Positions 1-61,807 are shown, counted from the stretch's first letter. The stretch: 64,000 nucleotides of DNA from Antedon mediterranea (GCF_964355755.1 NC_092673.1:32733648-32797647), one strand, 5' to 3'. Translations and numbers: made by a program. The notes: generated from the sequence alone by a model not told the origin.

Positions 1-153
1 AATGTGACATCAGAGTGTAGAACGCTATGGTTATGCAAATTATTACAAAAAGCCCTCGCAGTATTAACCAATTGCTGCAAAGTTAGAATTTCAATAAATT
101 GAATATTTGTCTCTTTCTTCATACCTCATCACATTTAATAGAGCGCATATCCA

Positions 154-722
154 AGTAGTGTACATGGAGGTATAGTCAGTCGTGATTATAACAATGGTTA
201 ACAATGGGGGTAGTATAAGACAATAGAGAATATCATTTCACTAGAATTGTTATATAGAATTGTTATATATTAATATACATTATAATATAAAATTAATAAA
301 TATTAAATAAAAATGATATGGTAATTTAGTTACTTGTGATGAGAACAAATGGTTTACAATGGTTGAAGTCAATAGGTGTTATGTTTCGGATTATAATACA
401 ATGGTTAACATAGGGTAAGGAAGTGAGACAATATAGTTTTTGTAAGATTTGAATTAGTCATAGTCAATAAAGATGCACCTGGTTAATTAAAACTAGTTAA
501 TTGAGGTTTTTGCTTGATGTATGCCGACATAATCCAAAGACATAAGTTATTTGATCCGGATATTATAACAATGACTAAAACAAAAAGATAAGAATGAATG
601 AAGTTAAATAATAAGTATGTCTTGATTGAACTATACCGACAGGTAATTAACCATCTTCCGGATTTGTTAACAAAGGAGAGAAATCGAAATCAGTGACACG
701 GCGTTTGACATACTAAAGTTTA
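154..722 (+). repeat. Left terminal inverted repeat of the Polinton (569 bp)
   Basis: Reverse complement of 13498-14066; line-by-line comparison shows 2 substitutions (near 308 and 332). Confidence 0.97.
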
Positions 723-947
723 CTGTAACTTATCTATACAATTTTAACTTTAATTTAAATCATAAAAGGAAAAAACAAAAGAAATAAAAACGACGCTTCT
801 GATGTCATGCATAAATTAATTTGTTATGTTTAAATATCGGGGGGGGGGGGTATAATTTGAAATTCTATGTCAGTGTTATCAATTACATCGAAGTCACTCA
901 AACTCTAGTACTAGTTCCAAAGTATTAACGCTACACGAGGTTAAAAG

Positions 948-3900
948 ATGAATTCTAACGTGCATACCGGTAATGAACAAGAATTTGAAGACAGCAGTCT
1001 TAGCGGTAACGAGGAATTTTTGTTAGAAATTCTTGATGACAACGATGAAATGGTAAGTTGAATCAATTTGTACTAAAAAATGTACGTATATTATTTTCCA
1101 AATGTTATTAAGAATGACTTCTTTGTTCTGTCTGTTACATGGGTTTTGTTATTTAATTTTCAGATTCGATGTATAGAAGAGTTAATTGATGATCAGAACG
1201 AATTATGTAATGAAATGGTAAGTTACTAGTCTATAAAGTTATTTTTAAAATGGTTATAATATATGATATTTAGTCTAATATACAAATTGTAACATTTTGT
1301 ATTACAGTACGGTATTTTGAATAGAAGCAGTAATAACGAAGAAGATATGATTGAATTTAATTATGAAGGAGTAGGAAAATACCGTAAAGTAATGGTAAGT
1401 TCTTTTTTTAAACATTGTTTTTTTTTTGTTTTTTTTTTATAAATAGTATAATTATGTAAGATATATTGTTCTTAGTCTGTCTGTTTTATTCATATTTTAG
1501 CACGGTAAGAGAAGAGGAGAGAAAAGATATTACGAGAATAATGAAGAAGATAATAATGAATTTGACGAGGAATTAGTGCAGCATGGCGCTGGAAATTTTC
1601 GTAAACAAATGGTAAGCTTGTACGGTTGTTTCTTCTTTACTTATAGATCTTTATTTATTTATTTTTTTCAATGATAAAATATAATATAAATGGAGTAAAT
1701 TGTTATTATTATTTTTTCTTGTATTTTAGCCTGTTAAGAGACCTCGCATTGATTCAGAGGAAGAGCAAGAGGATGAGCGTAACATAAGGGATGTAAATGT
1801 TGAAGATCTTTGTATTATAAGGAGACTTAGAGATAAGTTCAACAAACGTTTTAATTTATTTTCAAGTGATCATTTAGTTACTTTAGTAGGGTTAGACCAA
1901 TTTCGTGTTATTGATGTTTTACCTTTATTAGTTAAGATATTTGAACATGTGCTGAATATATTATGCCAAAATGTTCAGCCACATGATAGAGTTAGGCTTG
2001 TTATTAACGCTAACGGTTTAGATATACCAATTTCCTTACCTTTTTTATTGAGAGAACATCTAACGCCAGAATTCATTTTAGCTGAAATTACTAAAGTCCT
2101 TCAATCGCACATGGATATTTTAGTGGGGGATGGGTTAACCTTTAACATTCAACACATATCCATGCCGTTTGGAGGCGGTAGTAATAAATTCTTAAAAAAA
2201 GGTATTGATAAAACCAAAAAAGGTGCGCGATGTTTAATTAGAATTCAAAATGAAAACGACGAACAAATTTGCTGCGCGAGAGCTATTGTCACAGGTGTTT
2301 CATGGTTGGAAGATAAATTAAATAATAGAAAGCGATGGGATAGTATTAGACGGGGTTTTAATTTACAAAAAGAAGCGGCTGAAAGTCTTTTATCGAAGGC
2401 TGGGGTAGATAAGGGTCCTTGTGGGATAACTCAGCTTATACGTTTTCAGGAAGCGTTACCAAATTATCAAATTATCGTTATCTCCAAGGATAATTTACAT
2501 TCGATTATATTCAGTGGCAAACATAGAGAAAAACAAATTTATTTGTATCACCACGATAACCACTATGACTTAATAACTAAATTAACTGCATTTTTTTAAG
2601 TAAGATACTTTTGCAACTTGTGTTTCAAAGGTTACAACAATAAATTTGAACATAAATGTAAATTCAGTTGTGAGCTATGTTGCTCCAATGATTGCACTCC
2701 TTCATTGGAATCCGTAACTATCATTTCATGTAATGAATGTAATCGTTCTTTTAAAAATCAAAAATGTTTTAACAATCACAAATCTTCAAAAAATGGTACA
2801 AAAACGGTTTGTGATATTAAAAAAATCTGTAAGGAGTGCAATCGTTTCATTAAGAAGGATCATAAATGCAATGAATATACGTGTAAAGTATGTAATCTAA
2901 AAGTCCAAACAGGTCATCTTTGCTACATGAAAAAAGTAATTGATAAGAAAACTAACAAAACTAACGATGTAGATAAGAAGTCTGTGGAAAAATATTTCTT
3001 TTTCGATTTTGAATGTACCCAAGAAACGGGGGTTCACAATCCTAATTTATGCGTTTTACAAAAAACTTGTTTAAATTGTATAACAGAAGATAAGGACTCT
3101 GATCAATGCGAAATTTGGTACAATAAAAAACAAAACGAAATATTTAGCCTCAGACAAGAACTAACCGATTATTGTATCAGTGATGTTGATATTTTAAGAA
3201 AGTGTTGTCTAACTTTTAGACATATCTTTAAACAAGTAACGGTACTCAATGATACTGTCGATAAAGACGGGGTTGATCCATTTTCAAACGGGCTTATTAC
3301 AATAGCATCAGCATGTAGTTACGTTTTTGCCCGAAATTTTTTAAAACCTGATTCAATTGCCATATTCCCTCCATCAAATTTTGAAACTATTGATAACCAT
3401 TCTTTTATGAGTATGGAATGGTTATCCTACGAATCTAAACGTAGAGGAATCAATATTCACCATGCACGAAACGGTGGTGAAAAAGTATTTGGACCATATA
3501 AAATTGACGGGGCTTCTTTTGATCCTAATATTATATTTGAATTTATGGGGTGTATGTTCCACGGTTGTAAAAAATGCTATCGATCAGATACCAAAAATCC
3601 CTTTACCGGAGTTACTATGGCTGACTCGTATCTGACAACAATAAAAAAATCAGAATTTCTGAAACAAAATTTTCCCCAATTCGAGTATGTAGAAATATGG
3701 GAACATGAGTGGAAGGAGCTTAAACGCTCTTTACCTCCTCTTTATCGACAGGAGATACTTGATGTGCCTTACATTCACCCCACACTTAATCCAAGAGATG
3801 CTTTCTTTGGTGGAAGGACGAATGCTGCGCGATTATTCTACGAGGCTAACGAAGATGAAGAAATTCATTACGTTGATTTCACTAGCCTCTATCCGTATTG

Positions 3901-5149
3901 TAACAAATACGGAACATATCCCGTCGGTCACCCCGAAATTTTGGCATCTAAAAACATGTCGACGGATATTAATGACTATTTTGGTCTAATTAAATGCACG
4001 ATTGAACCACCCAAACATTTACTACATCCTGTATTACCATACAGGTTTAATGGTAAACTCATGTTTCCATTATGTCGCACGTGCGTAGAAAATCAATGCC
4101 AAGTGTCGTGTACACATTCTACTGACGAAAGGACTTTGGATGGTAGCTGGGTTACCACCGAAGTTCAGAAAGCAGTAGAAATGGGGTATAAAATTACCAA
4201 AGTACATGTAGCTTGGCACTTTCACCAAAGAAGCGAATATAATCATACTAACCCCTCATCGGGCTTGTTCACTAATTATATTAACACATTTTTGAAATTA
4301 AAGCAGGAATCCTCAGGTTGGCCTGATTGGTGTATTTCTGACGCTGCCAAATAGAAATACATCAATCAGTATGAAGAAAAAGAAGGGATAAAATTAAATC
4401 CCGATAAAATTGAATATAACCCAGGATTAAGATCCTTGGCCAAACTCATGTTAAATTCTTTTTGGGGAAAGTTTGGCCAGAAGGAAAACCAGTCTAAAAC
4501 GCTTTACACCAACAATCCTAATGATGTATACGATCTTCTCTCTGACCCAGAGGTAATTGTAAATGACCTTAATCTAATCAATGAAAATTTGGCCGAATTG
4601 AAATATCAAAATGAAGAGAAATCAATAACTGTTAACAAAAAAGTTAACGTGGTAATTGCAGCTTTTACCACGGCCACAGCTAGATTAAAGCTGTACGAAT
4701 TGTTAGAACATTTACAAGATCGTGTACTTTATTACGATACGGATTCTTGCGTTTTCGTTACTAATAAAACTAACCCTGATGATTGGCAACCATCGCTTGG
4801 TGATTATTTGGGTGAATTAACTAATGAAATAGATCTCAAAGACGGAAAATATATCTCGTGCTTCGTTTCGGGTGGTCCGAAAAACTATGTTTATAAACTG
4901 GATTCAGGCAAAACTGTCTGCAAAGTCAAAGGTTTGACTCTAAATTTTAAAAATGCTAAGAAAGTAAACTTTGAAACAGTAAGTAGTATGGTAAGAGGAA
5001 TCGGACCAGAAAAAATAACAACAAAAACCCGAGACCCAAAATCTTGTTCAATTATTAATACATCATCTAGCAAAGATTACCGGATTGTGTACGATAAAAG
5101 AATAATAATAGAGGATTACAAAACTGTCCCATACGGTTATGTTTGGTAA
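948..5149 (+). pseudogene. polB: Protein-primed B-family DNA polymerase (pPolB); exons 948-1052, 1164-1217, 1308-1394, 1501-1611, 1730-5149; disrupted
   Basis: Motifs FFDFECTQ (ExoI), YCISDVDIL (ExoIII), YVDFTSLYP, KLMLNSFWGKFGQ, YYDTDS, GPKNY; Cys-rich region; endonuclease-like insert IDG...EFMGCMFHGC...IWEHEW. ORFs 1949, 2618 and 4436 share one frame separated by in-frame stops at 2597-2599 and 4352-4354. The ExoII region appears deleted near 3110. Four upstream GT-AG introns, all phase 0. Confidence 0.92.
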
Positions 5150-5355
5150 CTTCTATACTCACACGTATATTTATTGTGTTTAGGACCCTAATTGTATTTA
5201 TTTTATTTTATTTTATTGTAATTATTTATCTACTTATTTTTTTCCTTTCACTTAAAATAAAATACAGAAGTGGTTATCGCGGTGATATAAATAAATTTAT
5301 TTTTCTCTGTTCATAATTAAACAAATTTGCAACTGTGCATGTTTAAAAAAAATGA

Positions 5356-5946
5356 ATTCTTTCGTTAGATGTTAATTTTTTTTTGTTACTTATTCTTAGG
5401 ATTTTAAATTCAAGTAAATAGTTCAGTAGTTAGTTATTAGTTTAAGTTATAATTTTTTTTTTATTTATATTTTTTTAAGTAAGATGATCACTTGAACGTT
5501 GAACTTATCTATTAGTACTCATTTTTAAGTAATTCGTTTATTCTTTGTTTTATATATATATATATTTTTAAAATTTAAATTCAAATAATTTTGTAAAATT
5601 TATGTAATCGGTTTGTGCAATAACTTTGTAAATATCTATTTTATATTAAATTTCTTTCGTTAGATGTTAATTTTTTTTTTGTTACTTATTCTTAGGATTT
5701 TAAAATCAAGTAAATAGTTCAGTAGTTAGTTATTAGTTTAAGTTATCATTATTTTTATTTATATTTTTTTAAGTAAGATGATCACTTGAACGTTGAACTT
5801 ATCTATTAGTACTCATTTTTAAGTAATTAGTTTATTCTTTGTTTTATATATATATATTTTTTTTTTAAATTTAAATTCAAATAATTTTGTAAATTCTATG
5901 TATTCGGTTTGTGCAATAACTTTCTAAATATCTATTTTATATTAAT
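5356..5946 (+). repeat. Tandem duplication of a ~295-bp AT-rich non-coding unit between polB and ATPase
   Basis: ttcgttagatgttaa...aaatatctattttatattaa occurs twice (~5356-5650 and ~5651-5946) with few differences. Confidence 0.9.
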
Positions 5947-6131
5947 TGTACAATAATTATTTCATTGATTAATTTACTGTACATAATGTAAAAAACAAAT
6001 ACGCATTAGTGTTAATGTGAATAAAGATTTAGATTTACGTTTTAAACATTGATTCAGTTTTATTGTTTAATTCGTGTCAAATAAGATGTTATAAAACGCA
6101 ATTATTTAACTAAATTACCGTCATAATTGTA

Positions 6132-6767
6132 ATGGCGAGTCCTTTGATAACACCTTTCACCGCAGTTATTAGCGGTCCGACATCTTCGGGTAAATCCGTC
6201 TTTGTAAGGAAATTGATTGAAAATAATTATTTCAATAAACCCTTTGACGATATTACATGGTGCTATGGTGAATATCAGAATTTATTTTCGGAATTAAGTA
6301 CAGCTGTATCAAATATAAGTTTTATGGAAGGTATACCTATCGAAACATTAGATGCGTTTGATTCGAGTAAAAATCATTTAGTAATTATAGATGATTTGAT
6401 GACAGAATGCAGTAGCGATAAAAGAGTCGTTAATTTGTTTACCAAAGGGTCTCATCATAGAAACATTTCAGTGATATTTATAATGCAAAATTTCTTCTAC
6501 GGTTCCAAAGAAATCCGTACCATTACTTTGAATGCTCATTATATCGTACTTTTTAAAAATCCACGGGATAAAACGCAAATATTGAATTTATCGAAACAAA
6601 TGTATCCTGGCAAAGGGCGGTTCTTACAAGAGGCATTTAATGACGCTACGCGTGAATCGTACGGATACCTATTCATTGATCTCAAACCATATACGTCGGA
6701 AGAAATGAGAATACGAACAAATATCTTTTCAGTAGATAAACATTATGCTTACGTACCAAAAGTATAA
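6132..6767 (+). CDS. A32/FtsK-like DNA packaging ATPase
   Basis: Walker A GPTSSGKS, Walker B LVIIDDLM, FTKGSHHRNISV and LFKNPRD motifs typical of Polinton ATPases; intact ORF. Confidence 0.95.
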   Translation: MASPLITPFTAVISGPTSSGKSVFVRKLIENNYFNKPFDDITWCYGEYQNLFSELSTAVSNISFMEGIPIETLDAFDSSKNHLVIIDDLMTECSSDKRVVNLFTKGSHHRNISVIFIMQNFFYGSKEIRTITLNAHYIVLFKNPRDKTQILNLSKQMYPGKGRFLQEAFNDATRESYGYLFIDLKPYTSEEMRIRTNIFSVDKHYAYVPKV

Positions 6768-6815
6768 CACATGTGATTTGAAATTATTCTATTCATTCCA
6801 ATACAAACTCACAAC

Positions 6816-7143
6816 ATGTCAAAACGTATCAAAAAGAACGCAGAGACTTTAAAGTTTTTAGCTAAAATGTACGCCTAAACAAAGAAAGGCCCTGCTTGAG
6901 AATGCCGACAGTCAATTAGTAACAGCAATCTGTGAGTGTGCAAAGAACATCTTAAAAGGTAGTGTACCGGTGTCTAGTGCTCATAAGAAGAAGTTGGCGA
7001 AGCATAGGAAACACTTGCGTGATATTTCCAATAAAGCTATACCTACGCTTCGACGTAAGCGTATACAACTTCAAAAGGGAGGATTTCTTGGTCTTATTTT
7101 GAAACCTATATTACAGACTCTGGGCGGATTACTTTTGGAATAA
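6816..7143 (+). pseudogene. Conserved small basic Polinton protein with C-terminal QKGGFLG amphipathic helix; +1 frameshift
   Basis: ATG at 6816 gives MSKRIKKNAETLKFLAK; removing one A in gctaaaatgt (~6864-6867) continues CTPKQRKALLENAD...ICECAKNILKGSVP...QKGGFLGLILKPILQTLGGLLLE to TAA 7141-7143. Absent from the ORF track. Confidence 0.8.
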
Positions 7144-7144
7144 A

Positions 7145-7906
7145 ATGGAGCACACAAAAAAATTGATTGTAGTTCCTCAAGAATTGGCAAATACATTGCT
7201 ACATAGCAAGCACTATGAACAAAAGCACAAAACAATAACTAACGGATTAGACGACTCTATGCAGACTATTCTTAATAGACAGGATATTAGCGATCACGAT
7301 AAAATCACAATGTACAATCAAGTACTTCAGCGTTTTTTAAATAAAGAGAAGCCTGTTAACAACCCTTCACCTATGAATATAAATATGCATGGACCTCTTA
7401 ATGACGAAGACAAGAATGATGAATCGACAGAAGCAATTAAGGATGATTCGATGACAAAAGAAGTATTGCAAAGCATGCCTATATCGTTAAAATCAAAAAC
7501 TAAGACATTTTTAGATCGAATAGACCGATACAGAAATATGGGTATTTTAGATTGGACAAAATACGGTGAAATGATCATCGAAGGAGAATTGCTAAAGGGT
7601 AGTAATTTATTTGATTTAACCAAAGATATGATACAAGAAAGGCGAGGATTTGAACCAGTGGGGTGGAAAGAATTTATATCGTTGTTGGCTAAGTTGAACA
7701 CGCCAGAAAGTTTGATTGGAAATGCTACACGACGCAACATGTTGCAACGTCTAAAATCTGGTGAAATAACCCCTCTTTCAAAAACCACATCTACAAAATC
7801 TAAACGACTTGAAAGATTTGATGACGACGATGACGATGAAGATAAAAAATATACTATTACTAAAAAGAAACGTACTAAAACTAAACCGAAATGGCTTGGA
7901 TTCTAA
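7145..7906 (+). CDS. Conserved Polinton protein of unknown function
   Basis: MEHTKKLIVVP start, KITMYNQVLQRFL, W...GE...GSN..DL, PVGWKEF..L.KLN.PESLIGN; typical position after the ATPase and small gene. Confidence 0.8.
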   Translation: MEHTKKLIVVPQELANTLLHSKHYEQKHKTITNGLDDSMQTILNRQDISDHDKITMYNQVLQRFLNKEKPVNNPSPMNINMHGPLNDEDKNDESTEAIKDDSMTKEVLQSMPISLKSKTKTFLDRIDRYRNMGILDWTKYGEMIIEGELLKGSNLFDLTKDMIQERRGFEPVGWKEFISLLAKLNTPESLIGNATRRNMLQRLKSGEITPLSKTTSTKSKRLERFDDDDDDEDKKYTITKKKRTKTKPKWLGF

Positions 7907-8087
7907 TCAATGTTATAAAATGTTTTTTTCAGTTATTAAATGTATTCATTATTCAAATTTATTTCGTTGTTTGTTGTTTTCTTTCTTTCATTATTTACTA
8001 ACCAACGCGTAATAAAGATACATACACATATTTTTTTTTTTTTCAACATTTAAATTTTAATACCAATATGAAAAAGACAACACTTAA

Positions 8088-8615
8088 TTAAAATATGTTA
8101 GTTAACATTTTGACAAATTGTATTTTTATATACTCCTTATCATACACCGGTAGGTTAACATCGTATCTACGTTCTACAAAATCATTAACATGTGCATCGT
8201 TAGTATTCTTATCTTTAGTGAACATATTAACTATATTTGAGGTGTCAATACCTCTACATTTATGAACAATATAAAAAATACAATATTGACCACAGACGGT
8301 CGACAATGGAGCCTGTAAACCCGTATCATTAAAAGTCCACGTGTTTACCGTACGATTTAGAAAATTTACAAAATGATTACTGTAATATTGAGGCGAATGT
8401 CCGAATGAATCAAAAAATTCACCCTCGTTAATATTGTTTAGAAAAAAAGCGACCCAATGCGAACCGTTTTGACTACTATCATCAACATTCGCTATGTAAG
8501 CACTAGGGTAACTTTTTATTCTTTTAGGTAACAAATCTGAAGGATATACACCTCGAAAGTATCTTTGAGTTAATGGATCAGATTTAACTAGTTTTAAAAG
8601 TTGCACAGTATCCAT
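8088..8615 (-). CDS. Adenain-like (C5 family) cysteine protease
   Basis: GSHWVAF (His), FFDSFG (Asp), Q...STVCGQYC (Gln/Cys); intact ORF. Confidence 0.95.
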   Translation of the reverse strand: MDTVQLLKLVKSDPLTQRYFRGVYPSDLLPKRIKSYPSAYIANVDDSSQNGSHWVAFFLNNINEGEFFDSFGHSPQYYSNHFVNFLNRTVNTWTFNDTGLQAPLSTVCGQYCIFYIVHKCRGIDTSNIVNMFTKDKNTNDAHVNDFVERRYDVNLPVYDKEYIKIQFVKMLTNIF

Positions 8616-8624
8616 GATTTTTTT

Positions 8625-9931
8625 TTAAAAGTCTAAAATTACGTTACGAGACTTATCGATTTCTATTAATGAATCAAATTCTGAATAAACTATTACGTTA
8701 ATTGTTTCGACTAAAGCTGTAGCAAATTGAATTTCAAGACGTATATTGCCGTGTTTAATTAAATTGAAATGTCCACTGCTTGATAAATCGGGTGTAAGGT
8801 CGAATGCAAACAACGTGTATCCTCTGGCGTAGTCTTCTCTGGATATTTGATTTCCCGTGTCGTCGAATAATGTATTTAATCCGGAGAATAAACTTTGATA
8901 GGCTAAAATATAACTTCCTTCACCGTTTGCTTCAAAATTAGGCTTTAATGGTTTCCAAGGTATTTGCTCACCGTCCAAATATAAGGATATAAAATTTGTG
9001 TTAAAGTGTTGAAAATTAAATGGATTTTTGCTATAATCACCGTTGAAAGCGTCGGTTCCTACTAATCCTACCACTAAGCGTTTCGGTAGATTCCCGTTGT
9101 ACAGCGACTCTCGGGTAAAGGAAAGGTTCCCCCGCGGTATCGACAGCGTTTTAACCGCGACCCGCCGAAGAGGGTATTTAGCTGACCCGCGCTCCAGCGC
9201 TTTTGCATGAGCCAACGCTATAGATGGATTTAGTTTCACTTTTCGTACGTAAATAGATGCAGCTTCTAACTGTAACTTATAACCAGCTTGTGCACCGGAT
9301 GACATCAAACAGAATGCGTTTTTACTTCGATGCAGTTTTAATTTAATGTCAACTCCATTAAGCATCATACGATCTTGAAAGAATATATCGCAATGAATAG
9401 GTCCTATCAAATCAACCAATCGACTTCCTCGTTTTTTAAGTCCTTGATTCGCAGCAGCATCGTCTAAAGTTGGATTTGCTACATCCATTCTACCCGCTGT
9501 ATCTTTATAAAACAATCCACCTGTAAGGTGAGTTTCCTTCGCGTCAGCACCGTACGTTAACAAGGTTTCAATCATCGCTCTGTACGAATAAGTGTTATTC
9601 GATGGAGTAATTAATCTCTCATTCAAAGAAACGTCAACTTCATTGAATAAGGACTGTAGTAGTAAATTAGTTGGTCCAACAGGATCGTCAGCATGCAAAT
9701 CTGTTCCATCGCCTCTTGTAATTTTAACGTTAACGCGTAGCATAGTCTGTGATAAATCTACGTATTCTTCGGTGGAACCTTGAATGTTAAATTGAACCGG
9801 TCCTGTATCGGTAATACTATTGAAAGGATGATACTGAACCCATTTGTTATACTTGTTTGAGTCGGTGGAACAGAAAACAAATCCAATTCTGACTTTAAAC
9901 ATTCGCAAGATTGTTTGTGTACGTACGCCAT
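8625..9931 (-). pseudogene. Double jelly-roll major capsid protein, frameshifted near its 5' end
   Basis: True start at 9931 MAYVHKQSCECLKSELDLFSVPPTQTSITNG (inside ORF 9758..10003), frameshift at ~9840 into WVQYHP...YVDLSQT...KNPFNFQHF...FDLTPD of ORF 8625..9908. Confidence 0.9.
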
Positions 9932-9944
9932 AGTAATTATATTA

Positions 9945-10325
9945 TTAATCAAATATATCGGAGGATCTTCTCGCTCTCTTAGTTCTTCTTCGACTGACTT
10001 CATTGCTTTTTCGCTTTCTCTTTTTATTCACTTTTCCGCTACCATTCTGAGAAACAATTCGTTTACCGGCTTGCGTAATTCTACGTTTTGCAGCTTGTTT
10101 GATATTTTGCCCACTTATAGCATCCTCCATTATTTCGGCTCCGGTTCGTAACGCTTGTTTTCCTAGAGTTTTGGCACCCTTTTTTAAAAGCGGTACAGCT
10201 TTTTTGAACAAACCAGACAACATTCCACCTAATCCGTACCCTCTCTGATTAGATGATCCATGAAATACAGGTAGGCTTAAACCGCCAGCTTGACCTACGT
10301 AGTAATCCTCATACGCGTTAGGCAT
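9945..10325 (-). CDS. Basic core/virion protein of Polintons with QxGxG motifs
   Basis: YEDYYVGQAGG, QRGYGLGGMLSGLFKKAVPLLK helix, Lys/Arg-rich tail ending DIFD; lies between mCP and MCP. Confidence 0.8.
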   Translation of the reverse strand: MPNAYEDYYVGQAGGLSLPVFHGSSNQRGYGLGGMLSGLFKKAVPLLKKGAKTLGKQALRTGAEIMEDAISGQNIKQAAKRRITQAGKRIVSQNGSGKVNKKRKRKSNEVSRRRTKRARRSSDIFD

Positions 10326-10327
10326 GA

Positions 10328-11104
10328 TTAAATGAGATGCGATGATCTACTCTGTCGAAAATGAAGCTTCACTAAAACATTCCCACGTTGAAATGATACT
10401 TTCTCACCAGTGTCACTCCTTATATCTATCGAAATGGTATCAATTTCTTTTTTGATTAAACGCTTGTAGTGAGGCATCATGTATTCGTGAGAAGTAACGT
10501 TTCTCATTTGACTCTCCTTGGTTTGTACAATTCTCAATAAAGGAACGCTTACATCTCCAACTCGTTGATGTTCGATCACGTCTGTATAAACGTATAAACC
10601 AGGTACACGATGATGAAGATTAATCGGATGATTGCCTGTAACATTTGAATTTAATAGAATCGAAGATATGTCGAATCCCAATAACGTTTGCATACCTCCT
10701 AACGACGTTATAGATGTCAGAATATCGGTTGAAATATTAACTTTTTCCGATACAGAATTGAATTTAAACCTTATGTTATCATCCAACTTCTTTTTTCTTA
10801 AAGCAGAGTTTATCGTATCAATCAGTTTCGAACCTGAACTATAATATCCGCTTGTAATTTCGATTTTGTATTCCATCGTTGCTGTTTCTATTTGAGAAAC
10901 GTTTAATCGTATCCAAATTTTATTGTTTGTATCGTCTACATTGTACCACGTATGTGGGTATTGTATTTCAGTTAAACCAACTTCCCACTCGCCTTTTAAT
11001 CGTATCGACTCGGCTAATTTTGTAGTGTAACTTGTAAGTGTATTTTCCGGAAAATAATTCAATGAACTATTGCTCGGTAGTGAGACGTGAAACTGAGATG
11101 ACAT
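10328..11104 (-). CDS. Minor capsid (penton) protein
   Basis: Likely start at 11104 MSSQFHVSLPSNSS; YFPENT, WEVGLTEIQYP, YVYTDVIEHQRVGDVSVPLLR, VKLHFR. Confidence 0.88.
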   Translation of the reverse strand: MSSQFHVSLPSNSSLNYFPENTLTSYTTKLAESIRLKGEWEVGLTEIQYPHTWYNVDDTNNKIWIRLNVSQIETATMEYKIEITSGYYSSGSKLIDTINSALRKKKLDDNIRFKFNSVSEKVNISTDILTSITSLGGMQTLLGFDISSILLNSNVTGNHPINLHHRVPGLYVYTDVIEHQRVGDVSVPLLRIVQTKESQMRNVTSHEYMMPHYKRLIKKEIDTISIDIRSDTGEKVSFQRGNVLVKLHFRQSRSSHLI

Positions 11105-11115
11105 GATGCTCGTGT

Positions 11116-12180
11116 TTATCTGACTAGATTCTGAACCCAACTGTTGAATTTAGCAGGGTACCCTAACCACTTAACGAAATATTCTGTCTTTCCATCACGC
11201 TTTCGCCTTTTAATTACTTTTTCGACGCGATATACATCTTTATCAGATTTTGAAACTTTTTGTAATTCTTTTTCGTAGAAATTTCCTTCGATTATATCAT
11301 TGTTCCAGTCCTTTACTTGATACGTTGGCATTGAGGTTCCTTTACGTTTAAATACAGTGAATATCTCTTCTGTCCAGTTTGCTAAATAACCTTTTTCAAA
11401 AATCATTTTATATCTACTGATACGCACTTGATCACCGACTTTAAACTTAAAACGTTTTACCGGATGCTTTCTTTCACCATACAATTTCTGCCACACTTCG
11501 TGCTCGTTGTCGCTTGTAACGAGAATCGGTGCAGTTCCTATAGATCTATGTTTTGAATTATTGTAACTGGAAACTAATTTAGGAAGTGCGTCGATATATT
11601 TTTTATTACCGTTTGCTGTAAATAATTTCCACATTCTCGTTTTTAAAGTTCTATTGAATCGCTCAACTATGCTTGCCTTCGTTTCGTTGTTTGTCGTAAA
11701 GAAATGTATATCTTTAGATTTCAGATACGATTGTACTTTTTTATTTATAAATTCTGTACCTTTATCTGTATGAATTTTAATCGGTTTTCTTATACCTGAT
11801 AACAGTTTTTTCATAGCTTTTAATATGGTATCTGAAGACTTGTTCTTTATCGGTATAACCCACGCATATTTAGATAAGACATCTATGCATGTTATAAGAA
11901 ATGTATTTTGCTTATTGTAACGTTTTAATGAAGTCAAGTCAACCAAATCCATTTCCCATTGTTCATCGATAGCGTTTACTTGTACACGGTTCCTCTTGAA
12001 TTTTCGTTGAATTGGTTTATGTAATGTATATGTATCTTGATTGCTCAGCCATTCCTGAACTTGTTTCTTGGTAATATTTAATTCGTCTTTTACATTTTGA
12101 TGAAGTCGGTCCACACCACCAAAACTACCGGGGTGTTTAGGATCGTAATATACTTTTCTTAAGTACTCATCCATACTCAT
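11116..12180 (-). CDS. Retroviral-like DDE integrase with C-terminal chromodomain
   Basis: YYDPKHPGSFGG; catalytic D (WEMDLVD), D (HTDKGTEF), E (IVERFNRTLK); chromodomain YFVKWLGYPAKFNSWV; intact ORF. Confidence 0.96.
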   Translation of the reverse strand: MSMDEYLRKVYYDPKHPGSFGGVDRLHQNVKDELNITKKQVQEWLSNQDTYTLHKPIQRKFKRNRVQVNAIDEQWEMDLVDLTSLKRYNKQNTFLITCIDVLSKYAWVIPIKNKSSDTILKAMKKLLSGIRKPIKIHTDKGTEFINKKVQSYLKSKDIHFFTTNNETKASIVERFNRTLKTRMWKLFTANGNKKYIDALPKLVSSYNNSKHRSIGTAPILVTSDNEHEVWQKLYGERKHPVKRFKFKVGDQVRISRYKMIFEKGYLANWTEEIFTVFKRKGTSMPTYQVKDWNNDIIEGNFYEKELQKVSKSDKDVYRVEKVIKRRKRDGKTEYFVKWLGYPAKFNSWVQNLVR

Positions 12181-12676
12181 TACCCTCAATCATCCAAATG
12201 AAAATTGTAAAAATAATTCAAATACTTAAATAACACGCAAAGATCAAATTTCATTTTCGTTGTTGTTGTTAAAAACGAAATTTATTTCAATACACATTCT
12301 ATTGCAATACACTTTACAAAACATAAAATCAAAATTACACAATAACAATTAAATAGAAAAAAAAAATACTTTTATATATACACTAACGTATTATTTAGTC
12401 AGAAAGAACAAAATACATTAATCTCAAAAACATTAAATTTATTTTAAAATAACTTTTAAATAGAAATGAAGAAATAACAAATGATAAATTAAATTTTTTT
12501 TTTTAAATTACTTTTACAAATACACTAGCCAGTTATTTAGTACTGAAAAAACCACACCAAAAATAACACACAGGTTAAAATGTTTAAATGCCCATTCAAA
12601 GTGGGTACTCGCATTTAAAAAATTGTTCAATTCAATATCACCAATCCGTTCCGTTTTCCAAAAGATTACATTGTAA

Positions 12677-13207
12677 TTACGGGAACTGTTTTAACCAATC
12701 GTAATTGTCATTCTTGTAGCTTTTTTTGGTCATTTGTGTTTCTGGCATTCCATTGTCATTCATGTCTACACCGGTTCCACAATCGTCAAATCCATCCAAT
12801 TCTAAAAACATTTCATCGACCATGTCCTTTTGTTCCATTAGATCTCTCCACTGCATCATTGTTAAATTAATACCTTTCTTCCCAGGTTTAAATTTACCAT
12901 CTGGTTCTGATTGATAGTATTCTCGGATACATACGTACATATCATCACCCCAACGTTGAGCAACGACGTGCCTCGTTTCATTAAGTTTAATACGTTTAGT
13001 AGCTCTAACTGTAATTCGACTATCATTCTTAAAAAAGTGATTCTTTACGACTGGTCGACAATCTTGTTGAAAAGAAGCGCTTGTATTTGGTTCATCTTCT
13101 ACTCTCTGTCTCTTGCTAGACCTCATAACTCGCTGCATAGTAGCCTTAGCCTTCTTATCAGCTAATTTAGAATCGGCGTAATCAGCTGTTGGTTTGTAGA
13201 AGTTCAT
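12677..13207 (-). CDS. PC4/Sub1-like ssDNA-binding (transcriptional coactivator p15) domain protein
   Basis: RHVVAQRWGDDMYVCIREYY...KPGKKGINLTMMQW matches the PC4 signature (VxIREYY...PGKKGIxL..QW). Confidence 0.85.
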   Translation of the reverse strand: MNFYKPTADYADSKLADKKAKATMQRVMRSSKRQRVEDEPNTSASFQQDCRPVVKNHFFKNDSRITVRATKRIKLNETRHVVAQRWGDDMYVCIREYYQSEPDGKFKPGKKGINLTMMQWRDLMEQKDMVDEMFLELDGFDDCGTGVDMNDNGMPETQMTKKSYKNDNYDWLKQFP

Positions 13208-13497
13208 ACTGATGAAAACTGTACTAAAATTCTCTTAATCAAGAATGTGGAAGTGAGTTTAGTGCGTTGTAAGCTGGTACTGATGAGTTCACTATAAATT
13301 TACCCATATATGTATACACACTAAAATAATTTATGCATGATGTCAGTAGCGTCCCTCTTTACCCACTTTTTGTTTTATTTTAAAAGGAAACAAAGAAATC
13401 TTTTCGTAAACGTAACCAATTTAAATGAAAATAAAACTAAACATTGGAAAACAAAAATCATCAAAAATAGTGAAACTAACATCATGACGTCACACAT

Positions 13498-14066
13498 TAA
13501 ACTTTAGTATGTCAAACGCCGTGTCACTGATTTCGATTTCTCTCCTTTGTTAACAAATCCGGAAGATGGTTAATTACCTGTCGGTATAGTTCAATCAAGA
13601 CATACTTATTATTTAACTTCATTCATTCTTATCTTTTTGTTTTAGTCATTGTTATAATATCCGGATCAAATAACTTATGTCTTTGGATTATGTCGGCATA
13701 CATCAAGCAAAAACCTCAATTAACTAGTTTTAATTAACCAGGTGCATCTTTATTGACTATGACTAATTCAAATCTTACAAAAACTATATTGTCTCACTTC
13801 CTTACCCTATGTTAACCATTGTATTATAATCCGAAACATAACACCTATTGACTTCAACCATTGTAAACCATTTGTTCTCATCACAAGCAACTAAATTACC
13901 ATATCATTTTTTTTTAATATTTATTAATTTTATATTATAATGTATATTAATATATAACAATTCTATATAACAATTCTAGTGAAATGATATTCTCTATTGT
14001 CTTATACTACCCCCATTGTTAACCATTGTTATAATCACGACTGACTATACCTCCATGTACACTACT
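13498..14066 (-). repeat. Right terminal inverted repeat of the Polinton
   Basis: Reverse complement of 154-722; ends CACTACT. Confidence 0.97.
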
Positions 14067-16071
14067 TCTCCACTTATTCGTATTCCATTTCCCCCAGATT
14101 TTAATATTGTCTAGGTCAATCACTCAATCCATTATTTTTCGCATGATTTACCATTTTTTAAATTTTGATGACGTCACCATTTTCAAAAGCGTGAATTATT
14201 TGGTCACTTATTTTCATCATTAGGCCTACAGTAAATTTTAATATGTTAGAAAAGTGATACTCATGATTAAAACGTTTTGTGGAAGCTGTTGAATTGTAGA
14301 TACGAATTATTCATGTGAACATTTTGCCAATCAGATGTTGTAACGGCATCATTATGTCCAGTTGAATTTAAAAAGTCGTATTTTCATCTTTTGCGTCATA
14401 GTTCATCACATATAAACAGGCGCGCATCTATAATTCTACGTATCCAAATTTCTTCAACACGTTAATATGTTGTTACTCAGATAATTCCCTTTCAAAATTG
14501 CTATCTGCGTGTTTCATTTAATGACGTCATCATGTTAAAAATTAGAATAAAAGGCGGGTCCCGTTATTTTCACCTATGCTGCACTGTAGTATGTATACAG
14601 TATGTGTATGCTGTATATATACTTTGACACAAAATAGAAAGCACACTAACAACATTTTATTTTCTTTAGGTCACAATGGCATAATCTTTTTTCTGTGCGT
14701 AATATTCTAACATTATGATGTGCTCATATATGCTATAGCATTTGCGCGGCGGATAACCTACCATATGACGTCATAGGTACGTCATATGGATATTTAAATA
14801 TGCGAATTAGAATGTTTAATATCACATTTATATCTAATCGTAATGCACTTAGGTGGTCTAAATCCAACCGTTAAGGAGATATGGGTATAGATATAACTGA
14901 GTAATGTTATTCAATGATTGTAATGTAGGAATAACAAAATCGTTTAATCTTACGGCTAGCCTCTATTATTTTTTTTTTGTATTTGTGAACAATGAGATTC
15001 GGTATTGGGAAAATTATTCTATAATACACTACCTACCTAAAAAGAAATTGGTGAACAAAATTAGATTTGTAAAAAAATGCGTTTTATAAAGGATATATTA
15101 ACCAAATCATATATATTTTCAATATTTGACCTCCAATTCCTCGTTCTCATATTTTCCCACTTTCTCACCAAATAACTCAGTAATGCCTTGTTCAAATTTA
15201 GTCAATTTTTTACAAAAGATAGTTCACACAATTGTATTTTGCATAGCATAGTCTCTTTTCCAAATAATAGTTAATTTTCCAAAACCAACAAAAAACCTAA
15301 AAATATGTTTCATATAGGCCTATATAGTAGTGATTTTTTTAAAAGAATGGCTAGAGGAGAAAATGGTCAGATCTTTTGCCTATTTTTTTTATTAAAATGA
15401 TTAGATGACTGTAGACCTCAAGTTAGACCAAACAATGTTGTTTTACTATGATTGATGTTAATGTTTTTTAGGTTTCAGTTGTTTTACTCAGGGGTAGAAG
15501 CTAGCCTTATTTTTTTAAAGTTTACTCTAGTAAAGTTTGCAAGTTTTACCTCAATGAAACAAAGCGACTTAATTCTCTCTCTGCATGTATTATAAGATAT
15601 GCACGTATACATAGCACATTGCAGTTTTGATATTTGATATGAATACTAATTAAGAAAATAATCGGCAAATACAATTCCTCTGCCAGTAATGATCTGATTG
15701 GCCAATAACGTATAGCCGAAGGTACTACACCAATTTCTGAATTTAGAGGAATTGCGGCAGATAACACTATGAAGATTTAAAAGCCTCTTTGCAAAAAGAC
15801 AATGTACTGCTATTGTTGAAGAAAGTTCATAGTCAAGAAACAAGAAACTGCTGGTTACCGGTATTTTAGTGTCGCTATACTATGAACTCATGAGTATGAG
15901 AATCAGTCCAATCGGGTTGACTTGTCTTAAGCACTTGGTAGAAGAGTATCGAGTAGGAACATAAGCATAATTATTATAACATATTTGCGAGATGGCAGAT
16001 AGGAGATTTCTCTCAATCGAGGGAAACATTATTTATTTACATGTATACGTTTGTTTTTCCTTTTATTGTAG

Positions 16072-19508: not shown

Positions 19509-19790
19509 TACTCTCACACATCAAATTAATAATAAATCACACTTGTTGGCCGGAAATGACACTCCCACAATTTTGTATTGAGCGTTAGTTAATTTTTCCG
19601 TTTACATTAATTATTTCACATAACAAAATAAACTTTCCGCCACCAACCCACGTGTTTTAACATAGGATAATCCAAAAAGCACATTTTATATATTGTTGTT
19701 GTGCCCAAACTGGCTACCAGATCGCCGTTGGCAAAACTTCATTTCACGTTTAAGTACAGTTTAAAAACCGTCACTTCTGTTTACTTACAG

Positions 19791-22700
19791 TTCATTTAAG
19801 ATGGAAGATACATTTTACATACACCAAGTGGTTGAACGTCTAGGACTACAAAAATATTATCCTAGAAAACTAACACGTGAAGAAGTATTTATAGTTTCTA
19901 AAAATGATATTTCACCAGACGAACTCAATGATGATCCAAGCAAAATACCTTGGTACATGCTGCAAAATCTTATAATGTGTAACTATGAAGGAAGATCTTT
20001 TGAGTTAGAAGAAATTGAGCCTTTTGAAGGAAAGGAAATTGCACTCTCTTCTGCTACACAAAAAAGTGGAAAAGAATCAAATCACCGTAAAGTAAGTCCA
20101 ATAGACGCACTAGTAGCTATCTTCTTCTGTTGTGACAACTTTTTAAGACAAATTTTGATTGAAAAATTGTCAACATGTCAGTTAGCTATTCCATTGCTGA
20201 TGCGCGTTACCGACGTACAAAATAAACAATGGGAATTGATTGTGTGGGGAATGAGCACAATCACAAAGAAATGGCAAACGGGTTCCGGTTCATATTGTGA
20301 ACGACCAATGGTGGTAGAAAAGTTACCGATAGTGTCTGCTTTGCGAATAGGAAGACCTAAAATATCAAAATCTAAAATCATCAACTGTGTCATGAATGAG
20401 CAGAAACATGATATTTTCTTTAATTCTGGGTGCAAAGGTGGACATTTAGAACGGAAATTATCAGATGGCTTAATAGAAATATCATGGTACCTTCCAACAC
20501 AGAAATGCATGAATGCTTTTTCAGATGCATTGACTTTTATAAATTTGAGAGGGAACGCATCAGGTTTACATCATCAGACACAATTTTTATCTGAGACATC
20601 ACTGGTCACTATTGCATTCGTGGCATCTGCTGATTATAAAGAGAGTGACAGCAGATTACTTGAATCATTGTACAGACAAAATGGTCATGTAATTTTTGTC
20701 TTAGATGGAACTCCTGGAAAATATTTGAAAACAACCTTTCTTAGGATGGAAAAAAACATACAAAATGTGAATAAACAAGTAAACAGTTTTGTTTCATCAA
20801 TGAAGAAGGAGCTGCAAATAAGCAGATACATTTGGGAATTGCTTGGAATTCATTTTGAAGGAAGAAATCGGAATGCTGTTTGTGATAGGAGTATTGAGAT
20901 GTGCATTGAAGTAGCACAGAAAATGAATTATCATGTTGATGAAATGATACAGGATTGTTTACAGGCTAAACAGGGTTCTGAGGAATTGATCGAGCGTGTT
21001 AGATTAAAAGGAAAACAAAATGAGCTACCTTTGCAGATGGTAACACGAAGCATTGCAGAAATGAAGAGAGAACAGCATCAGCTACTAAAAAATATGCAAA
21101 CTGTAGAATACGTTGATAGACTAAAGAAAGAGATAGACCTACGTAGTAAACAGTTACACATACAGCAAGGTAGATCCGAGCGTTGCGTATATGAGATGTT
21201 TAGAGCCTCATTCACAAACTCTCTTTCAAATAGAAAATATTTCTTTGGTTTTATTAAGATAATGGCTGATCGATATAGCATCGACAGGTTACAACCAATA
21301 CGTGACAAATGGAATGAGTTGTGTGACAAAAGAAAACACGAACCAGAAACATCAAAAGCACAATTAGAATCAATGACAGATAGACTTGAACTTGAACGAC
21401 AACTTTCTAGTGAATCACTTGGATTAGAACACTTCAATCGAGAAGTTGGACAGAATTACGAGATGTCATTAAGTTTAAAATTACGTGACCCCATCGTAGC
21501 AGAAGTTGCTGCTGAAATGTTACTACATGGTTATCCCATTGAGCTGATGGATGGTGATGCAGCCCACGCGCCTCTCACTTGGATTGAAGCCGTTTTTAAT
21601 TCTCTTAAGGACCAGATTGGCAATAAGAAACTATTTGTGTTATCTGTACTAGGCATTCAAAGTAGCGGAAAATCAACCATGTTAAATTCAATGTTTGGCT
21701 TACAATTTGCCGTTAGCGCCTGCAGATGTACTAAGGGTATATTCGCCCAGTTAATCTCACTAGATGAAGATTTAAGAGAAGACACACAATGCCACTACAT
21801 TCTGGTGGTTGACACTGAGGGCTTGTGGTCTCCTGAGTTTGCAAGCATCCATCAGTCCTACTATCGTCATAATGAACTAGCCACGTTTGTCATTGGTTTA
21901 AGTGATCTTACCCTATTAAACATCAAGGGAGAAGATGCAACAGACATGCAAGACACACTTCAAATTGCTGTCCATGCTTTTATGAAAATGGAAAATGTTA
22001 ATATCAATCCAAACTGCTTATTTGTACACCAAAACGTCACTGATGTCTCAGCATCCGATCTGAATGCGACACAACAAAGTATGCGAGAAACTTTAAATAA
22101 AATGACAAAATTTGTAGCCGAAGCCGAAAATTGCAGTGGAAAATATAAATCATTTTCTGATGTCATTAAATTTCATGAAGACAAACACATAATGTACACT
22201 TCAAGTCTTTGGCAAGGAGATCCACCGATGGCGCCCCCAAATCCTGGATACAGCAAATACAGTCTTCGAGTAAAGAAACAAGTCTTGGAAATCATGAATT
22301 ATTCCAAACCTAAAAGTATAGGTGAGTTCACAACATTGCTGTCCGATCTTTGGAGGGCAATATGTCAAAATTCTCTTGATATTCAAGCTTTTTATGCTTT
22401 AAATAAAGAATATGAGAAGCATGCCCGCACATTCAGAAGAAATACACTGACATATAGCGCCAGACTTCAAACAAAATTTAAGAAACTTAGAGCTGAAAAG
22501 ATGAAAAAAGAGGGTGGCAAAATCCTTAACGAGTACATACTGAAGTTACAAAATGACATTGGAGCTTTTCAATTAAGCATGGCGTCATATTTTGAAGAAG
22601 AAGAAAAAGCATGTCAATGGAAATGCAAAATGGATTCACAACGTGACGGTCTTTGTAAAGAAATTGAAAATGAACTGAGGGATGTGTTTAAATCAATGAG

Positions 22701-22825
22701 AAATAAAGCAATTAGAAGAGTTGAAATTGATCCCGAAAATGAAATGAAATTCATTTTGGAACAAGAAAAAACATCTTATAAGGAGTCGAGCACATGTAAA
22801 GAAGAACAAGTTCAAACAGAAACAG
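19791..22825 (+). CDS. GVIN1: VLIG/GVIN1-like very large GTPase exon, copy 1; C-terminally truncated, ends at a splice donor
   Basis: G1 GIQSSGKSTMLN, G3 DTEG, NELATF, LWQGDPPMAPPNPGYS; acceptor ttacag|19791, donor ACAG|GTTAGT at 22825; lacks the ~550-aa C-terminal part present in copies 2 and 3. Confidence 0.85.
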
Positions 22826-22952
22826 GTTAGTTAGTGCAGTTAAATTGTTAGTATTACTATAAGCCAATATTCAAGATATATATTTTATTGCCTTTGATAC
22901 TATTCTGTTGGTATTCAAATACAAAACGTATTTGTATTGTTTTATTAAACAG

Positions 22953-31059: not shown

Positions 31060-31969
31060 TGCGCTGTTCCTGCTCTCACAGCATTTATTATTTTTGTACA
31101 CTATTTTAAAAGAACGAATAAATATATAAGAGCATAATACACACTATACAAAATTGCACAAAAACATTATACATAATAATAAAGATACATTATAAAAAAA
31201 TTACTTAAACAGAACCAAATTATCTATTTTCGTTTCGAAAACCAGGTTGTTCTTGACAAAAAAAAATGTTCTTCAGCCCACTTATACATTCTATTATTAA
31301 TGATATTCAAATATATTTTACACATACTAGGTATTAGGGGAATGCCTCTCTGTATTACTTTTTTTTTTCTTTTTTAAATCGGAATTATAGAATAGTTGTC
31401 TATCTACTTGGAAAATTACCTAAGTAAATTGTTTATTAAACACCTTTGCCTGTTGGTCAACCGAAAACTGGAAAATAATAAAAACTTAATTATTATTTTA
31501 AGATATAAGAAATTGACCAAAATAATCGACATTGAAAAAACAGTATTACTATTACATTAATTACTTTTAAAAGAAATTACGGGACAATATTAAATACGAA
31601 TTTCACTGGGAAATTTGTTCCAAATACAAGTTGAACATACCCCTGAAAATGAGGATTCTGTCTTTTTTTTTTTTTTTTTTTTTTTTTTATTTCATACTCA
31701 TCCAACAGCGAGTAACCCGCCAATTACAGGATGGATAAACTTGCAACGACCAGTATCAAAATGTTTACCAACAGGTGAATTACGAAAATACATTGCGGAT
31801 TTTGAAAATTGAAACGATTATCAGAAATATTGGTGGTTACTTTTTTATCATTAGAAACTGAAAGTACGTTCATGGTGGAAGTCTAAACTACTATATCTTA
31901 GAAGTGTTATGTAAAGCAAGTTAAAATGTGAAAATGTATTTATATTTGTAAATATGTAATTCTCTTTAG

Positions 31970-48210: not shown

Positions 48211-48584
48211 TAAAGTTTATTTGTATATGTGTTTATATAATGCAAAACAATTTGTGAAAAACACACCTATTCGCTTTAAACGACAATAAATAATTATCTA
48301 GCTCAAGGGTCTGTACTTTTCCATCTTTCTTGTTCTTAATTTTCGCATACTCTTTAATCTCTTGGAATTGCCACATCAATTATTTAACACTCTTTCTACA
48401 TATTATATACTATATAATGTCCGTTCTTCGTGCTTTTATGTCTCTATCACGTTGGACATTGGATCACATGATCTTTATTTCTTCATTTTCCATTACAACT
48501 TCTAGATGATGTTCGTATCATTTCACATTAACTTCGAAGTTTAACTTCAGTTACCAGACACTGTCGTAACACCTTTTAAACTGA

Positions 48585-51330: not shown

Positions 51331-51862
51331 AAAAAATTTAGACAAAGCAACTAAAAAGCTTCTGATTATATAAACAAAGACGAACACAAACTACTGAGGA
51401 AATTTTCATTATGAGTTAAGATTCTAATAAATTCTCTATCAATATTAAGTTAATCTCTTAGCTATACAAGTTTTACATAATACGAACATATAGTTAGGTT
51501 TTTTTTGTACTAAAACAAAACAACTAAAACAGCTTCTAAGAGTTTTCAACCACATGTAGAGAGAATCAAGAACTTCCCGAACAGGATAACATTTTTATTT
51601 TTTGACTAAACAGACAATTTAGATCAAATGTACAGGTGCAGTTGACAATGTTAACAAAAACCCCTCTTTTTAGAATTACTACTTTCACTGATTATTGAAA
51701 TCGCTGTAGCTCGCAGGCTTGCTTATCCATCCTTAGACATCCAGTACATAAAGATAGATAAAATACACATTAACGATCCTAATATAAATAAATTCTAATT
51801 AAGTGAAAGTATAGCCTATTACTACAGTAGCAAATTATTCTTAATTTAGTCAAATTTCAGTA

Positions 51863-53680: not shown

Positions 53681-53780
53681 GTAAGTTAATATATGGAAAT
53701 TATTTACATTTTGTTACAGATTTTTTATGTTGGAGATTACCGGTATCATATTATATTTAACACTTTCGTTAAACTTCCAG

Positions 53781-61582: not shown

Positions 61583-61807
61583 AGCTTGGTTCCCACTAGA
61601 ACGTAACGCAAGGACGTAAACGCAATTTAAGCTTGGTTCCCACTAGCGACGCAACGCAAGGACGTAACGCAACGCAAGTGAATTGACCAATCACAAGCGA
61701 TGGCTTATTGGCTTGTGATTGCTAACTGGTATGACTTCGCTTGTCATTGGTTAAAACGCTTGCGTTGCATTTACGTCCTTGCGTTACGTTCTAGTGGGAA
61801 CCAAGCT
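61583..61807. mobile_element. PIF/Harbinger-like MITE in the minisatellite, copy 1
   Basis: TIR agcttggttcccactagaacgtaacgcaaggacgtaaa / tttacgtccttgcgttacgttctagtgggaaccaagct; an extra left TIR at 61630. Confidence 0.7.

Follow-up and report, generated by a model that had tools for sequence, protein, structure and literature searches.

Evidence for a spliced acidic leader with a candidate protease site in front of the polymerase of a crinoid Polinton

The core genes of Polintons are called intronless (PMC8097293; 10.1101/2022.07.12.499685), and the accessible part of the second source places introns in cargo genes. PMC12166617 describes introners in eupolintoviruses of dinoflagellates, and PMC12220804 describes group I introns in PLVs. 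In adenoviruses, the E2B mRNAs are spliced (PMC11304566), and the first coding exon of the terminal protein (TP) precursor, pTP, is 9 nt long in HAdV-37 (PMC2397415). The consensus site of the adenovirus protease is (M/I/L)xGx/G, with Gln also accepted at P4, and pTP is among its substrates, QRGF/G being one of the sites cut (PMC4246237); nuclear targeting is one proposed purpose of this processing (PMC4246237, PMC7998265). The substrates of the Polinton protease are not named in the Polinton literature, as far as its accessible text goes.

The window analysed here is a 64,000-nt stretch of Antedon mediterranea DNA (GCF_964355755.1 NC_092673.1:32733648-32797647), in which a Polinton of 13.9 kb spans 154-14066. 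We consider it likely that the host spliceosome routinely assembles an acidic propeptide at the start of the polymerase (pPolB) of this element, and that the element's own C5 protease removes it in the particle by cutting at QxGx/G, so that a basic N-terminus is exposed.

Both ends of the element read AGTAGT, and the sequences flanking the TIRs (TATCCA and TCTCCA) match at five of six letters when ends 154 and 14066 are tested for a 6-bp target-site duplication. In a Pfam search of 16 ORFs, the PF03175 polymerase was matched in two pieces (E 2e-20 and 7e-8). Together with long TIRs, an rve integrase, a packaging ATPase and a C5 protease (Table 1), this is the content of a Polinton/Maverick of the OTU + PF03175 type; TP and vOTU lie N-terminal to the polymerase, judging from the model of the homolog P0056, and the best viral match is an adintovirus polymerase. 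The intronless core ORFs of the usual description, which is not a taxonomic criterion, are not all found here, owing to the spliced polB leader. Unlike that leader, the integrase, protease, ATPase and PC4 genes are each one ORF with its own Met. The term PC4 was not found in the accessible text of three Polinton papers (PMC8502044, PMC8097293, PMC11161782). The probable major capsid gene (about 8625-9941, minus strand) has no Pfam match, and a DUF5901 match at 10328-11149 is under the cut-off. Rfam gave no match across 150-14100. Scans for the locus returned no viral contig; metagenome contigs gave none in one scan and three unrelated loci in another, and in the two of these three that were inspected the match is a short nuclease-like stretch only.

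Table 1. Features of the Polinton and of its polB leader, in window coordinates
Feature	Coordinates	Strand	Evidence
Left TIR, ~574 nt	154..726	.	opens AGTAGT; 99% complementary to 13494-14066
Likely promoter region: shared motif, G run, TATA-like box at 851	790..885	+	inverted match
Exon 1, coding part, 35 codons, acidic, start codon	948..1052	+	X10 joint; 33/35 identical to P0055/P0210 residues 1-35
Intron 1, 111 nt, GTAAGT...CAG	1053..1163	+	absent exactly in X10 contig; kept in X1, X5 and X8 contigs
Exon 2, 18 codons	1164..1217	+	joint on either side in one X10 contig; 18/18 in P0055/P0210
Intron 2, 90 nt, GTAAGT...CAG	1218..1307	+	absent exactly in X10 contig
Exon 3, 29 codons	1308..1394	+	first part 9/13 in P0210; second part 16/16 in P0024/P0126
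Degenerate xxGxG of exon 3, Tyr at P4	1362-1376	+	sequence
Intron 3, 106 nt, predicted	1395..1500	+	P0024/P0126 junction; one X10 contig covers it unspliced
Exon 4, 37 codons	1501..1611	+	37/37 in P0024/P0126; 14-15/37 to second unit of two Anneissia models
Candidate QxGxG protease site of exon 4 (QHGAG), then basic residues	1579-1593	+	motif enrichment
Intron 4, 118 nt, predicted	1612..1729	+	P0024/P0126 junction; P0055 uses homologous acceptor; X10 contig spans 1632-2064 unspliced
Exon 5: KRPR basic patch, TP-like domain, vOTU, Cys-rich region, PF03175	1730..5149	+	Pfam, P0056 model, fold search
TP-like domain (exon 5)	~1800-2170	+	P0056 model and fold search
vOTU (exon 5), Cys/His kept	~2180-2590	+	P0056 model and fold search
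Packaging ATPase, A32/IVa2-like, weak	6114..6767	+	Pfam Pox_A32, 5e-5
Adenain-like protease, Peptidase_C5, one ORF	8088..8624	-	Pfam, E 9e-6; translation
Small basic protein with two QxGxG sites, probably a virion core protein	9945..10346	-	translation
rve integrase and chromodomain, one ORF	11116..12189	-	Pfam, rve 8e-14
PC4/Sub1-like single-stranded-DNA-binding gene	12677-13207	-	Pfam, E 8e-15
Right TIR	13494..14066	.	pairs with left TIR

This copy is decayed despite its young look. Two stops (2597-2599 and 4352-4354) break its polB frame, and in comparison with a contig of sequencing run X5 some 0.43 kb is absent at 3115-3117. The probable major capsid gene seems frameshifted near its 5' end, and so does a small basic core-protein-like gene at 6817-7143 (plus strand). 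In the polB 3' region (5161-5516), short antisense copies of polB coding sequence stand in nested order: 5161-5189 pairs with 2884-2856, 5269-5308 with 2564-2525 (92.5% over 40 nt) and 5349-5373 with 2079-2055, and these three pairs beat 300, 300 and 299 of 300 shuffles, respectively. Two further pairs (5476-5496 with 1880-1861, 5498-5516 with 1843-1825) are weaker. Long-range RNA pairing, a source of small RNA or a decayed inverted duplication could possibly account for these copies. A 296-bp tandem duplication lies behind polB (5357-5945), and the depth of run X5 is about ten times higher at 5311-5450, a hint that the organism labelled B has either a larger array or a separate repeat. Outside the element, a cluster of three long single-exon host genes resembling URGCP/very large GTPases was seen (19765-22830, 31960-36696 and 53773-58526, the third split in two frames), and the Polinton thus adjoins a probable immune-gene cluster. 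Tandem arrays occupy 48582-51343 (period 258 bp, 10.7 copies, 96%) and 60743-63998 (period 39/117 bp).

The initial annotation described four phase-0 micro-exons in front of the polymerase ORF, and their coordinates, lengths and frames, with those of the introns, were reproduced. All four exons are free of stops, have lengths that are multiples of three (105, 54, 87 and 111 nt), and end in a Met codon followed by GTAAG; the stop-free state arises, depending on the exon, in 2.5-11% of mononucleotide shuffles. The introns (GTAAG...AG) have a GC content of 0.17-0.25, compared with 0.28-0.36 in the exons. ATGGTAAG is present four times within 948-1730 (783 nt); dinucleotide shuffles of this segment contain it 0.021 times on average, and none of 5000 reaches four. 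Elsewhere in the window it was found twice in 126,436 strand-bases. The leader is indeed acidic, Asp and Glu making up 31 of its 119 residues. Branch-point-like motifs were recognised in only two of the four introns, and no unusual pre-mRNA structure was detected (z -0.53, 20 shuffles). At the start of exon 4, CACG/GTAAGA (1501-1510) forms a strong donor-like site 4 nt past the acceptor, use of which would shift the frame.

The TAG of the intron 4 acceptor is itself the stop that opens the exon-5 frame, and the first Met of this frame is residue 128, inside the TP fold. As there is no earlier Met in exon 5, the TP domain can be produced only from an upstream exon. Retention of any leader intron leads to a stop within 2-20 codons, in agreement with the proposal that it would block polymerase production.

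Contigs of four sequencing runs (X1, X5, X8 and X10), out of ten matching the stretch, were compared with the predicted exons. One 335-nt contig of X10 runs from 792 to 1052 and continues with the 54 nt of exon 2 and with 29 nt of exon 3; its two joints skip 111 nt and 90 nt, both GT..AG, at the predicted ends. Exons 1 and 2, and exons 2 and 3, are therefore joined in this contig. X10 bears the label of organism B, which differs from that of the window; it comprises 70 million letters at a depth of about 3, the spliced contig having a depth of 3.4, and its depth in bins 1018-1176 and 1177-1335 (1.03 and 1.48) is that of the spliced contig alone. X10 is probably RNA. No exon joint was observed in the contigs of X1, X5 and X8, in which the introns are present; X8, which was guessed to be RNA, carries the introns and shows no GT-AG joint. 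Joints for introns 3 or 4 were not found among the contigs of the four runs, which cannot prove absence. Other X10 contigs, over 1337-1556 and 1632-2064 (depth 2.5-3.5), keep intron 3 and part of intron 4; they could stem from pre-mRNA, from transcripts that retain the introns, from DNA or from other copies. Thus, of the junctions listed in the initial annotation, 1052/1164 and 1217/1308 were seen in one X10 contig, whereas 1394/1501 and 1611/1730 are present in gene models only. The dependence of polymerase production on a spliced leader is borne out by the joining of exons 1, 2 and 3 in this contig, by the late Met of exon 5 and by the stops upon intron retention. As in adenovirus E2B, a short upstream exon gives the start codon, and ATG 948 lies within the spliced contig.

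The same contig begins upstream of the TATA-like box (Table 1), so that four upstream ATGs (802, 807, 826 and 867) would enter the message. Segments 763-842 and 13303-13382, just inside both TIRs, form an inverted match (70%) with a common core of about 27 nt; one copy of this core stands upstream of polB and the other, inward of the right TIR, upstream of the PC4 gene. From its position, this match is probably a promoter module common to polB and PC4.

RefSeq builds alternative isoforms from transcript alignments. RefSeq models together use all four leader donors, and in four of them (P0024, P0126, P0055 and P0210) the exon peptides follow one another with no residue gained or lost at the junctions. 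Over the second half of exon 3, exon 4 and the start of exon 5, P0024 (XP_071948939.1, Antedon mediterranea) shows no difference from the window. P0126 (XP_071948922.1) comes from another copy, on the 36-Mb contig that also carries P0024. Both models have exons 3, 4 and 5 joined exactly as predicted, but both start at an inner Met of exon 3 and may have been predicted ab initio; because P0024 begins within exon 3 and bypasses the stops, this caution extends to its junctions. P0055 (XP_071955298-300, 'isoform X1') and P0210 ('isoform X4') lie on another contig, of 30.6 Mb. P0055 has the exon order 1-2-5, and P0210 the order 1-2-3, diverging after about 11-13 residues of exon 3; the common contig and the identical first 53 residues led us to take them as one gene. 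In-frame exon skipping, which had been anticipated from the exon lengths, is thus represented by the 1-2-5 isoform. This gene is truncated, so its isoforms, the skip form included, may reflect decay. The joining of exon 3 to 4, of 4 to 5, and of 2 to 5 in the skip form is predicted by independent gene models. In addition, loose ends of X8 and X1 contigs at 1334-1340, where other copies continue with different sequence, coincide with the point where P0210 diverges. Exon 3 of the window therefore probably arose as a hybrid when a deletion near this point fused two units, and other copies probably contain further leader sequence.

Exon lengths were expected to stay multiples of three while introns gain indels, and the differences fit this expectation: among 12 indels listed out of 89, eight are in the leader, seven of them intronic (4, 1, 1, 1, 3, 1 and 1 nt, six of the seven frame-shifting) and one, of 15 nt, exonic. 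Among 40 substitutions listed out of 425, ten are in the leader, five of these are exonic, four of the five being at third codon positions, and none affects a GT, an AG or a terminal ATG. These data bear on the possibility that AT-rich DNA in front of a broken ORF mimics exons by chance, the joined contig being a processed DNA copy or an assembly error. The joints were indeed observed in a single contig, from a run that is only probably RNA, and the RefSeq model of the locus is partly fanciful. However, no shuffled sequence reaches four donors, two exact GT-AG joints lie within one contig, identical joints are present in RefSeq isoforms from another chromosome, and the indels follow the pattern above. 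We regard such an artefact as highly improbable.

Splicing might also act as a regulated switch, by which the host retains introns 3 and 4 in some tissues, makes no polymerase and controls replication or maturation; in another form of this model, exons 3 and 4 are skipped and the pPolB precursor lacks the protease site. X10, in which introns 1 and 2 are spliced, has contigs covering introns 3 and 4, but, as noted above, these have several possible origins. One sister gene is annotated in both the 1-2-5 and the 1-2-3 forms, and the first lacks QxGxG; this skip isoform stems, however, from a truncated copy. Retained introns do bring in early stops, yet any AT-rich intron would do so. Finally, all four donors are near-consensus GTAAG and no weak site was seen. 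A switch of either form is unlikely, and we retain routine splicing by the host as the preferred reading.

The initial annotation proposed that an exon-intron unit was tandemly duplicated inside the element. This holds for exons 3 and 4, whose resemblance was noted there and is reached by 3 of 2000 shuffles at the DNA level and by none of 5000 at the protein level, but neither for the other exon pairs nor for the introns. Between exons 1 and 2, any likeness is weak (protein, 146 of 5000 shuffles; DNA, 751 of 2000), and the remaining eight exon pairs, among which the start of exon 5 was counted as an exon, show none beyond chance. None of the six intron pairs is alike beyond chance, the best being equalled in 286 of 2000 shuffles. 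Fourfold duplication of one unit was rejected because only exons 3 and 4 are alike, and mobile introns of the introner type were rejected on the basis of the intron comparison. Two models from Anneissia japonica (P0001 and P0056), which are 63-64% identical in exon 5, have two acidic N-terminal units, each ending QxGxG-K-H-x-K; the duplicated unit is therefore old. A strict need for Met at every exon end was also rejected: provided that the boundary is homologous, Leu is the last residue of the second Anneissia unit, and what is conserved may be TG/GT; exon boundaries in Anneissia, as in P0055 and P0210, were deduced from the proteins.

The position of the leader relative to the folded domains was examined with an AlphaFold model of P0056, built on 63 sequences, and a fold search. 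Residues 1-70 of the model are in blocks of pLDDT 38-56, so the leader is predicted to be disordered in this homolog. Residues 104-215 gave an LF/PAD-like match to a Y-family little finger, of middling quality (4ir1, Z 6.3, rmsd 3.0, 91 aligned), and residues 220-356 matched an OTU protease (Z 8.9, rmsd 4.3, 132 aligned). The same TP-vOTU layout is described in PMC11161782. From this order of folds, the leader precedes TP. The idea that the leader is itself the terminal protein was rejected, since the TP fold is wholly within exon 5; TP is in frame with vOTU and is not encoded apart from the polymerase, as it is in adenovirus E2B. A sequence search of solved structures gave no real match.

Exon 4 contains the motif QHGAG, which fits the substrate type of adenain (C5), (M/I/L, also Q/N)xGx/G, and in exon 3 the corresponding xxGxG has Tyr at P4. 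A profile search for pPolB homologs, of which the best 150 of 2578 were listed, was used, and 174 proteins were examined; 78 of them were dropped because they had fewer than 25 residues before the TP core or no match reaching it. QxGxG was present in the leader of 46 of the 96 retained proteins, compared with a mean of 1.6 and a maximum of 6 in 1000 shuffles. In a held-out set of 76, from which the crinoid proteins and the 25 first seen were removed, 32 leaders had the motif (mean 1.28, maximum 6, 2000 shuffles). These proteins are top matches, related to each other and not a random sample. The held-out leaders contain 33 sites per 8,850 residues, versus 3 per 44,047 downstream. Lys or Arg often follows, with a basic pair in 15 of the 32 cases, and no held-out leader has two separate sites. 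Strict QxGxG is missing in 44 of the 76, some of which may be cut-off gene calls. In conclusion, QxGxG followed by K/R is conserved across pPolB leaders. The initial annotation had seen the GxG motif of exons 3 and 4, but had not recognised it as conserved and as a probable protease site.

By its resemblance to known C5 substrates, the exon-4 motif is likely to be a cut site of the element's own C5 protease; the Peptidase_C5 product is the candidate enzyme, and the vOTU domain is an alternative candidate. The leaders of homologs are highly variable, with zinc fingers, acidic stretches or Ser-rich stretches. In many distant homologs (P0005, P0006, P0062, P0064, P0070, P0144 and P0160), a C2H2-type zinc-finger leader replaces the acidic one, and most of these zinc-finger leaders precede a QxGxG motif.

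This variability, and that of the number of units among copies, could mean that the structure is near-neutral, introns having been gained in a low-complexity N-terminal tail which needs only an in-frame Met. The stacked ATG/GT ends would then have been left behind by duplication of a 'start codon plus donor' module, and GxG would serve as a flexible linker or within a nuclear signal rather than as a cut site. The predicted disorder of the leader and the frequency of basic pairs after the motif agree with this. On the other hand, a plain linker has no need of Gln at P4, yet 33 of the 72 xxGxG sites of held-out leaders have it, and QxGxG is also present twice in the small basic protein of the element. 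We find this explanation improbable. A more elaborate possibility is that alternative splicing of phase-0 cassette exons sets 0, 1 or 2 protease sites on the TP-polymerase precursor; the host spliceosome would decide whether the form made is cleavable and particle-bound or uncleavable and intracellular, and retention of introns 3 and 4 would shut the polymerase off. If true, this would be a splicing switch between the viral and the transposon lives of the element, and we think it quite unlikely.

We favour instead routine assembly of the propeptide followed by its cleavage. The first two introns are removed, as seen in the contig of a related copy, and the last two are predicted to be. Splicing would be a normal reaction of the host spliceosome, passed on within this crinoid lineage of elements. 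By analogy with adenovirus pTP, C5 cleavage in front of the TP domain may take place during particle maturation; the genome-bound TP would then begin with basic residues that possibly act as a nuclear signal. Because of their phase-0 symmetry, leader units could be duplicated, fused or skipped without loss of frame, and the site-bearing unit appears to have been duplicated once (exons 3 and 4; two units in Anneissia).

If polB starts in spliced small exons, the published pPolB sequences of such lineages miss the true N-terminus, and these elements depend on nuclear transcription and on the host spliceosome, like adenovirus E2B. QxGxG in front of the TP domain is a concrete candidate substrate for the Polinton protease, and suggests that maturation of the pTP style may be older than adenoviruses. 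Spliced polB was not found by term in the accessible text of PMC8502044, PMC11296320, PMC11244446, 10.1101/2023.08.22.554363, 10.64898/2026.10.13.758929 and 10.1101/2025.02.07.637071. The accessible literature holds no report of spliced animal polB leaders or of the QxGxG site; Repbase, Kapitonov and Jurka 2006, Pritham 2007, the 2024 MMBR review and supplements may hold such reports.

Compared with known systems, the element resembles Polintons/Mavericks (adintoviruses, Eupolintoviridae) in its TIRs and its PF03175 polymerase with TP and OTU (PMC11161782, PMC8502044, PMC8097293), as well as in its rve integrase, ATPase and C5 protease; a near-perfect 6-bp target duplication may be a further likeness. 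It differs from them, as described in the accessible text, in that the polymerase starts four introns upstream; the accessible Polinton literature proposes only vOTU cleavage downstream of TP, whereas the candidate C5 site is upstream of TP. As for adenovirus E2B, the start codon of a replication protein is in a short upstream exon, and the viral protease removes the N-terminal part of the adenovirus TP precursor, QRGF/G being a known site (PMC4246237). In adenoviruses, according to the accessible sources, TP has a gene of its own, and several mRNAs share the leader exons. Here, there are four coding micro-exons, one fused gene, an integrated element and a duplicated site-bearing exon. Splicing of the third intron of the Drosophila P-element is germline-specific, and the truncated product is a repressor. 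The likeness is that the key enzyme of a mobile element needs host splicing and that retention leads to a stop. Introners and group I introns also lie within Polinton-like elements; they are, as described, mobile or self-splicing insertions that are mostly post-integration, whereas the present leader introns are mutually unlike, clustered in one leader, common to copies and without Rfam match.
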